From Acetobacteraceae bacterium (GTDB taxonomy: Bacteria > Pseudomonadota > Alphaproteobacteria > Acetobacterales > Acetobacteraceae), in the NCBI GenBank assembly GCA_044369385.1, contig JBIPLY010000619.1:18-64017 (forward strand): a stretch of 64,000 nucleotides of DNA, given 5' to 3'. The notes under the pieces were generated by a model. That model saw only the letters and a list, made by a program, of their open reading frames with translations, searched no databases and had not been told where the DNA came from. This document shows positions 62,713 to 63,098 of this stretch, piece after piece (within the stretch, counting starts at the first letter, position 1; every line of letters starts with the position of its first letter). The translations under genes were made by a program, and so were the position numbers.

Positions 62713-62813
62713 GCCACGTGCACCATGTAATCTTCTTTTATAGGGGGAAAGGCATCACGTGGCACGCTTCCAAAATCGCTCAAAGATTCACGCTACAAAC
62801 GTTACAGCCGTTT
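62713..62813 (+). repeat. CACGTG quasi-palindromic element, copy E9
   Basis: gccacgtgcaccatgtaatcttcttttatagggggaaaggcatcacgtggcacgcttccaaaatcgct...cgttacagccgttt. Confidence 0.9.
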
Positions 62814-62896
62814 CGCCACACATCGGAAGATGCCCAGAGTCAAACCGCTAAGTTCGCCGCAAATCTCGCCTACTTTTGGGCATATCTTGAGATCCG

Positions 62897-63056
62897 GGTT
62901 GCGCTTTCCCCGCGATCTCGTTTGCGCTTTGGGTGCGTTTTGGCTGCGCTCATCTTGCGATCTGATTGCGCGATCGCCGCGAACGAGTTGCGCTTGTCCT
63001 GCGTTTTTGTTGCGCGATCGGTTGCGTTCACCATTGCGTGATTGTTTGCGCTTTAG
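62897..63056. repeat. phased TTGCG motif array 2
   Basis: About 12 TGCG motifs spaced 10-13 bp apart (with two double-length gaps of about 22-24 bp). Examples are ggttgcgc, gtttgcgc, ggtgcgt, gctgcgc, cttgcga and gattgcgc. The array ends with gtttgcgctttagcgatccag. Confidence 0.8.
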
Positions 63057-63098
63057 CGATCCAGCCTGTCGCCATTTTGTCAATCCCAATCAAAAACC

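Follow-up and report, generated by a model that had tools for sequence, protein, structure and literature searches.

The 64,000-nucleotide stretch of DNA analyzed here (the window) represents most of contig JBIPLY010000619.1 (C575; 65,707 bp), the longest contig of an assembly assigned to an Acetobacteraceae bacterium. It contains two copies of a composite non-coding module, at 23099–23515 (module 1) and at 62713–63098 (module 2), and each copy carries a long array of TGCG motifs in a single orientation with a period of 11.2 bp. The arrays probably constitute a helically phased landing array on double-stranded DNA for a DNA-binding protein that binds cooperatively, a class assignment to which a probability of about 0.8 is given. 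It is drawn from the pattern of conservation between the two modules, from the changes that separate them from their counterparts in a sister strain, and from the architecture of known phased arrays.

Homology, helical phase, and selection in the two modules

Both modules are built in the same order and orientation, with a 102-nt cassette followed by a variable spacer of 63–74 nt, the TGCG array, the word GTTTGCGCTTTAG(A/C)GATCCAG, and the box ATTTTGTCAAT (Table 1). Module 2 occupies the interval from the tape measure gene to a gene for a 153-amino-acid (aa) protein. Module 1 is situated behind the last of the baseplate genes, right against the terminator belonging to a convergent operon, and terminator prediction gave none on the plus strand after module 1. 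The first-pass annotation of this DNA had described module 2 as a second, diverged copy of a cis-acting element in the same orientation, consisting of a CACGTG element, a spacer, about 12 motifs, and two terminal words. This description is accurate, as all of these parts are present at the positions given, the spacer measures 74 nt, and 9 of the 12 motifs read TTGCG. The distance between the module starts, annotated as 39.6 kb, is 39,614 bp. In array 2, the 12 TGCG motifs extend over 62900–63050 at spacings of 11–12 bp, with two double-length gaps, also noticed in the first pass, of 23 and 22 bp. These gaps are slots that hold a degenerate CGCG core at the expected phase. In the left half of array 1, TTGCGC alternates with CCTGCGC, which produces a super-period of 23 bp. 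The top strand is poor in A, with 8% A in array 2 and 16% A in array 1.

Such arrays occur only twice in the contig and are its two top outliers for any 4-mer. Each array contains 12 TGCG in ∼175 bp, a length in which about 1.0 would be expected (P ∼1e-9 for each). The period peak at 11.2 bp has a phase coherence of 0.93 in both arrays.

Pairwise alignment of the two modules gives a mean column identity of 78%, and a BLAST search of the whole 4.8-Mb bin with module 2 recovers module 1 at E = 7.6e-22. The arrays align without a gap over 230 bp. The best register, at an offset of 39,581, has 65% identity, compared with at most 38% at any other offset, whereas the spacer between cassette and array requires gaps of 23 and 10 columns. 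Within the arrays, 56 of 64 core positions are identical (87.5%) versus 56 of 110 spacer positions (51%; Fisher p = 6e-7), in agreement with the earlier suggestion that motif positions are conserved rather than exact sequence. The longest exact runs common to the modules are only 27, 19, and 15 bp.

The lineage comparison covers two strains. The sister strain, whose flanking proteins are 96%–98% identical, has both modules at the same places, and judged by coordinates, one of its contigs (41 kb) should span both. The sole change in its array 2 converts the CGCG at 62911 to TGCG, and the spacer upstream carries six substitutions in ∼60 bp. In its array 1, TGCA has become TGCG, TTACG has become CTGCG, and TTGCG has become CTGCG; the only indel, in the degenerate 5′ fringe, is a deletion of exactly one 10-bp unit. 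Because the cores are kept over the spacers, the two arrays align without indels, and the sister-strain changes restore or retain TGCG, the comparison indicates selection at the DNA level on the 4-bp core together with its helical phase. The paralogue comparison thus amounts to an in silico footprint in which only TGCG and its spacing are selected, and this eases the design of binding experiments.

A coding function on the minus strand was considered and rejected. Open frames of 107 and 95 aa are present, but they begin with TTG, and no ATG is conserved between them. CGCAA occurs in all three minus-strand reading frames (as RN, AQ, and SA), which argues against constraint at the protein level, and the openness of these frames is explained by the T-poor strand, which by itself removes stop codons. 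The Rfam 15 covariance models at the gathering score yielded zero matches in the whole window. Folding of both strands gave weak z-scores (−1.7, −2.4 for module 1, and −0.6) and no predicted fold common to the two modules. These analyses lend no support to a coding gene or to a conserved RNA fold, and the indel-free maintenance of an 11.2-bp period points to recognition of duplex DNA.

Distribution of the cassette and of phased arrays

In contrast to the array, the CACGTG cassette is not confined to the modules. It is found in nine copies on both strands of the contig (repeat families D1–D4 and a nine-copy alignment), so the element outlined in the first pass is a two-copy element in its array but not in its CACGTG part. 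The family has a layout of ∼100 nt, GCCACGTG...TTTTATA(T)AGGGG...CACGTGGCAC...ACAGCCGTTT, in which the core TTTTATA(T)AGGGG lies between two CACGTG palindromes, and 62713–62814 aligns with it over its full length. By reading of the alignment, TATARGGGKAANNNNNTSACGTGGCA is present in all nine copies, and a pattern search confirmed it in the five plus-strand copies. The module 2 cassette is 81%–87% identical to other copies, and 85%–87% identical to those at 3287–3391 (−) and 13501–13601 (+). Each array lies behind a cassette of matching orientation; the other seven cassettes have no array downstream.

Several further observations concern the cassettes and promoter-like sequences. The copy at 59395–59499 (−) opposes the flanking plus-strand genes just before the tape measure gene, and on its own strand it is followed by a perfect 10-bp hairpin and a T-run (GGCTGTGACG...CGTCACAGCCGTTTTT), as if a short antisense RNA were made there. 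A partial copy at 39014–39049 (+) lies inside the helicase-primase open reading frame (ORF) at 38685–42416 (−), on the opposite strand. A different promoter-like word, TTG(C/T)GT-N8-TATAAT with a conserved GTTTTGTG-like spacer, occurs at about ten sites between 21345 and 58423, before early transcription units. The likeness between this early-promoter box and the array core is weak and was dismissed, as the fourth position of the box is C in only about half of the copies.

No array is present at the homologous positions in relatives with 54%–56% protein identity (L013 and L025/L027). In L013, the 56%-identical homologue of the 153-aa gene has no array, and upstream of it, at 1320–1385, is a cassette-like element with GTGTCCG...CGGACAC around TATATAG, whose inverted-repeat arms differ from those in the window. 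The cassette design seems to be common to lineages, with arms that are lineage-specific. In L025/L027, a convergent gene comes immediately after the homologue (54%) of the P2-I-like gene. Five isolated myoviruses of Nostoc, Anabaena, Dolichospermum, and Leptolyngbya (sheath identity 33%–40%) contain no comparable array of any 4-mer. Given their absence from L013, L025/L027, and these five isolates, the arrays are a recent, lineage-specific addition, duplicated together with a cassette. Searches of IMG/VR with the flanking proteins found no close relatives, and exact words from the tail of the module and from the cassette gave nothing there but chance matches, none with arrays. A BLASTN search of 50,697 phage records gave no match.

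An unbiased pattern scan of IMG/VR for five TGCG motifs at 11–12 bp found >118 loci, mostly exact tandem repeats. Nine arrays with degenerate spacers, of 7–9 units each, were examined, and seven of them (on contigs L103, L075, L102, L130, L098, L046, and L112) lie in or beside genes that match the PHROG annotations "replication initiation protein," "O-like," or "primosomal" or Pfam DUF1376. Examples on unrelated viral contigs are TTTGCGATCGN units in PHROG 3926 genes and arrays inside DUF1376 genes. This is the arrangement of the lambda origin within gene O. The window proteins include no relative of these initiators, and the look-alike arrays bear on the class of architecture, not on homology. 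The same kind of scan of metagenomes was uninformative, since it returned mostly cellular tandem repeats beside unrelated genes (TctC, MFS, and outer-membrane protein).

The arrays as a probable protein-binding platform and the alternatives

In the preferred reading, a (T)TGCG(C) core of 4–6 bp is offered 15–18 times, in one orientation and every 11.2 bp, so that successive copies of the protein would be placed along almost the same helical face and could polymerize into a nucleoprotein filament. The excess of 0.7 bp over 10.5 bp per turn would rotate each site by ∼24°, and ∼15 sites would then complete one superhelical turn. Lying 60–75 bp downstream of a cassette in the same orientation, the array would control what leaves those two cassettes. 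Relative to the L013 lineage, in which the homologue has a cassette-like element and no array, the array is an add-on. As a tentative mechanism, somewhat short of even odds, the bound array may be a roadblock or silencer of transcription behind the two promoter-like cassettes. At module 2, it would act on transcription into the 153-aa tail-region gene, and at module 1, on read-through into the convergent operon.

Of the proteins encoded in the window, the most plausible candidate for the binder is a 113-aa protein with a coiled coil and an excisionase-like winged helix. It matches PHROG excisionase families weakly, at E values of only 2e-3 to 9e-3. The AlphaFold2 model has a confident long N-terminal helix followed by an excisionase-like helix-turn-helix and β-hairpin (helices 2–40, 57–63, and 68–74; strands 75–81 and 84–89). 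The predicted local distance difference test (pLDDT) score is ∼50 over the C-terminal half, and the model is not good enough for a fold search. The coiled coil of such a protein could bridge the two arrays. Other candidates are a basic helix-turn-helix protein, two KilA-N proteins, and the 1243-aa helicase-primase (Table 1). The likeness of the latter to herpesvirus origin-binding proteins spans the helicase domain only, and the structure model of the 362-aa protein encoded next to the helicase has a pLDDT of 30. No integrase, repressor, partition ATPase, or classical initiator was recognized among the ∼75 ORFs scanned, and no integrase or repressor is in the precomputed Pfam lists of the sister-strain contigs.

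Among the closest precedents for such an architecture are arrays bound by recombination directionality factors (RDFs). Apl of phage 186 binds seven (pR-pL) and five (attP) six-bp direct repeats at 10–11-bp spacing and represses promoters (PMC7498355). In RDF-type systems in general (186 Apl, P2 Cox, and lambda Xis), short direct repeats one helical turn apart are bound cooperatively in a filament-like manner (PMC7498355, PMC3936717). The present arrays share with these the single orientation of the cores, a period of 11.2 bp, and, with phage 186, the presence of two separate arrays. They differ in having 15 and 18 phased slots instead of 3–7 sites, in lacking an integrase, attP, or lysis-lysogeny switch, and in their position behind promoter-like cassettes in the tail-gene region. 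In the lytic mycobacteriophage D29, GC-rich direct repeats are the target of the MerR-family protein Gp36, which represses early as well as late genes located downstream of its site (PMC12266134). One binding region is described for D29, in contrast to the two long arrays here, and the two systems have no detectable sequence relation.

A number of points weigh against this interpretation. Two of the nine cassette copies point against neighboring genes, and prediction of sigma-70-type promoters found none in either module. The promoter activity of the cassette and the array-binding protein are both inferences from sequence. Module 1 has no downstream gene to control. The 113-aa candidate depends on an E value of ∼2e-3 and a low-confidence model, and an array of 15–18 sites is two to three times as long as any citable RDF-type array. 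The absence of arrays from the 54%–56% relatives and from the isolated relatives means that there is no comparative support for any function. Lastly, viral look-alike TGCG arrays are found mostly in replication-initiator genes, which favors a role in replication instead.

In that alternative, which is doubtful but the likeliest of the rivals, the arrays would be iteron-type sites bound by a phage initiator, either the 1243-aa helicase-primase or one that was not recognized. One array would serve as the origin, its partner as an additional origin or a cis-acting site for control or pairing, and transcription from the cassette would provide activation. Well-known iteron systems include the lambda origin in gene O, P1 incC/incA, the R6K γ iterons with looping to α and β, and P4 ori/crr, which is bound by the α primase-helicase. 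They have in common with the present arrays phased direct repeats at one or two turns and a second array kilobases away; in those systems the distant array acts in cis. The P4 binder is a large primase-helicase, and the window also encodes a large helicase-primase, one that matches the PHROG annotation "replication origin binding." The 23-bp super-period in the left half of array 1 corresponds to the classic two-turn iteron spacing, two distant arrays fit a layout of origin plus control site, and seven of the nine degenerate TGCG arrays in IMG/VR lie at initiator-type genes. A promoter upstream of the origin element is likewise familiar from the T7 and T4 origins and from transcriptional activation in lambda. 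However, the origin-binding match is limited to the helicase domain, and no O-, Rep-, or DUF1376-type initiator was found in the contig. The arrays are neither in nor beside an initiator gene but in the tail-gene region among late genes, 5–15 kb from the replication genes, and they are twice as long as those of initiator genes. They also lack a flanking AT-rich unwinding region (the flanks are ∼50% AT). Reading of the two modules revealed no conserved DnaA-box-like word, and the GC skew does not switch at either array. Pairing or looping of the two sites, which the first-pass annotation had proposed, is compatible with both leading models, through a coiled-coil binder in one and through handcuffing in the other, and is plausible by analogy with iteron handcuffing and P4 ori/crr.

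A role in genome organization is unlikely. The arrays might then be a centromere of the parC/ParR kind, a site of packaging or condensation, or the place where the neighboring HerA/FtsK-like ATPase is loaded. The type II centromere of plasmid R1, parC, has ten 11-bp direct repeats to which ParR binds cooperatively, forming a helical scaffold. Its architecture of at least ten phased direct repeats with a period slightly above 10.5 bp is matched here. The arrays are polar and in one orientation, as are translocase-loading sites, and a gene for a membrane-anchored HerA/FtsK-like ATPase lies 3 kb from module 1. Module 2, however, is far from that gene, and the terminase genes are >8 kb from either array. 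In contrast to parC, a single locus that flanks its own promoter, the arrays occupy two loci, there are no parM/parR-like genes, and the phage looks strictly lytic, with no ParA, ParM, TubZ, integrase, or sign of a plasmid-prophage among the ∼75 ORFs. Two more specific roles were also considered. A pac site is unlikely given the distance to the terminase genes, and a Chi-like or restriction-decoy role would not explain the strict helical phase.

The arrays might also act on the host, although this is quite improbable. With 33 phased sites per genome, multiplied by replication, they could be decoy DNA that titrates a host protein reading 11-bp direct repeats, such as an OmpR/PhoB-type response regulator or a DNA-binding defense protein of the KilA-N/BstA kind. 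If so, the phage would rewire host regulation or blunt defense by means of DNA without a protein. In a variant of this idea, bridged arrays would fold the 71-kb genome into two topological domains. Function at the RNA level is improbable as well. Here the cassette would drive a transcript of ∼300–400 nt with 12–15 UUGCG motifs, to be bound by an RNA-binding protein or to serve as a sponge. Module 1 would yield an independent non-coding RNA, and module 2 would supply a 5′ leader. The sense orientation of the arrays downstream of a promoter-like cassette, the lack of an ORF for module 1 to serve, the strongly A-poor top strand, and the fold z-score of −2.4 for module 1 are consistent with this. 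A period of 11.2 nt with zero indels over 230 nt nevertheless fits the DNA helix, and we know of no RNA-protein spacing that would match it. The missing Rfam matches, the absence of a common fold, and the weak z-scores argue in the same direction, and the contig contains no complementary CGCAA-rich target.

It is highly improbable that the modules are a recombination substrate or a decaying duplication without a function of their own. They are direct repeats with 78% identity, and the first-pass annotation had offered recombination as one explanation. This proposal does not hold up well, as uninterrupted identity is limited to the runs of at most 27 bp noted above, and either deletion product would lose essential genes and be inviable. 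No recombinant junction was seen in the sister-strain contigs examined; those reaching upstream of the 153-aa gene all have the tape measure gene there (five loci), and the single contig covering module 1 keeps the parental flank. Decay is further opposed by cores that are far better kept than spacers, by spacing without indels, and by the retention of both modules in the sister strain with substitutions that restore cores.

Genome context and significance

The contig has 53% G+C and 1.17 HIP1 (GCGATCGC) sites per kb, compared with 68% G+C and 0.26 per kb in the rest of the bin, and by this difference in composition it is a mis-binned cyanophage. The phage is apparently lytic, and its host is most likely a cyanobacterium, apparently a freshwater one. 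Among isolates, the Nostoc/Anabaena myoviruses A-1(L), N1, and YongM come closest, with sheaths that are only 33%–37% identical. Two sister-strain contigs (L014 and L146) join the contig end (∼65690) to its start across ∼5.4 kb with six more genes, the assembly having broken at a repetitive fiber-like gene at the contig end. The bridging contigs therefore point to a circular or permuted map of ∼71.1 kb, which the two arrays divide into arcs of 39.6 and 31.5 kb. The larger arc includes the early/replication block, the portal-like gene, and the genes for sheath, tube, and tape measure, the last directly upstream of module 2. Terminase, lysin, baseplate, and fiber genes are in the smaller arc. 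The earlier notion that the arrays bracket the early/replication region and the head genes is thus borne out for the early block and the portal-like gene but not for terminase. The early/replication block (23.5–51.5 kb, mostly minus strand, with replication genes at 28–46 kb) encodes a Dda-like helicase, the 1243-aa helicase-primase, a β clamp, a SNF2 helicase, a RuvC-like resolvase, a C5 methylase, and the small chain of ribonucleotide reductase.

Table 1. Coordinates of module parts, phage genes, and candidate binding proteins in the window
Feature	Position	Strand	Details
Module 1 cassette	23099–23200	+	
Array 1	23264–23469	+	18 phased slots: 12 TGCG plus TGCA, TGAG, and TACG variants; period 11.2 bp
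Module 1 conserved tail	23463–23503	+	GTTTGCGCTTTAGAGATCCAG ... ATTTTGTCAAT
Intrinsic terminator of convergent minus-strand operon	23517–23537	−	7-bp stem (6 G-C pairs), then T8
Module 2 cassette	62713–62814	+	102 nt; CACGTG at 62715 and 62756 flanking TTTTATAGGGGG; 3′ end ACAGCCGTTT
Module 2 spacer	62815–62888	.	74 nt, variable; indels of 23 + 10 columns versus module 1
Array 2	62889–63050	+	15 phased slots: 12 TGCG, 2 CGCG, 1 GAGA; period 11.2 bp
Terminal unit GTTTGCGCTTTAGCGATCCAG	63044–63064	+	Counterpart in the window only at 23463–23483
ATTTTGTCAAT box	63074–63084	+	15 nt upstream of the start codon (ATG) of the following gene; only other copy in the window at 23493–23503
Downstream gene	63099–63560	+	153 aa; function not assigned
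Tail tape measure	59578–62706	+	1042 aa; Pfam PhageMin_Tail 3.8e-24; PHROG tape measure down to 4e-47
Tail sheath	53940–55451		
Tail tube	55457–55912		
Baseplate J and P2-I-like proteins	17.2–23.1 kb		
Large terminase (ATPase part)	5194–6195		PHROG terminase 1.4e-19
Likely small terminase	4746–5207		Position; N-terminal helix-turn-helix-like stretch read from sequence
Portal-like protein	46994–48208		
Candidate binder (inferred), 113 aa	28239–28580	+	First gene of early plus-strand operon
Candidate binder, basic helix-turn-helix protein, 198 aa	50905–51501		
Candidate binders, two KilA-N proteins	56760–57239; 6223–6990		
Candidate binder, helicase-primase, 1243 aa	38685–42416	−	PHROG "replication origin binding"; herpesvirus origin-binding-protein helicase domain

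Other features of the window were recorded in passing. The block at 24292–28161 (−), which adjoins module 1, contains the HerA/FtsK-like ATPase gene (26339–27520; DUF87 1.6e-5, FtsK_SpoIIIE 1.8e-4) and an M23 peptidase gene (24954–25577). A 560-aa protein (638–2320, +), encoded between the fiber-region genes and the terminase region, has precomputed Pfam matches to GGDEF and EAL, domains for the synthesis and breakdown of cyclic di-GMP. Within the tape measure gene, TTTG recurs with a regular 33-bp period at 61477–61678, probably reflecting an 11-residue protein repeat. The word TGCGCA has one site in the whole window (10431), compared with 14.6 expected under a maximal-order Markov model, while TGCGCT, TGCGCC, and TGCGCG occur 42, 13, and 24 times; the array cores are TGCGC followed by any base but A. 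TGCGCA is the site of FspI/AviII/MstI, a specificity known from filamentous cyanobacteria, and its scarcity suggests that the host has a restriction system directed at this site.

Helically phased direct-repeat arrays are the cis half of excisionase switches, iteron origins, and plasmid centromeres, systems that to our knowledge are all known from temperate phages and plasmids. A limited search of the literature on cyanophages and iterons found no description of an iteron-type origin in this cyanophage group. In this apparently lytic cyanophage, two unusually long arrays are joined to a private promoter-like cassette, at two of its nine copies. Discovery of the binder may reveal a new filament-forming regulator of cyanophage late transcription, an iteron-type origin, or a DNA decoy.

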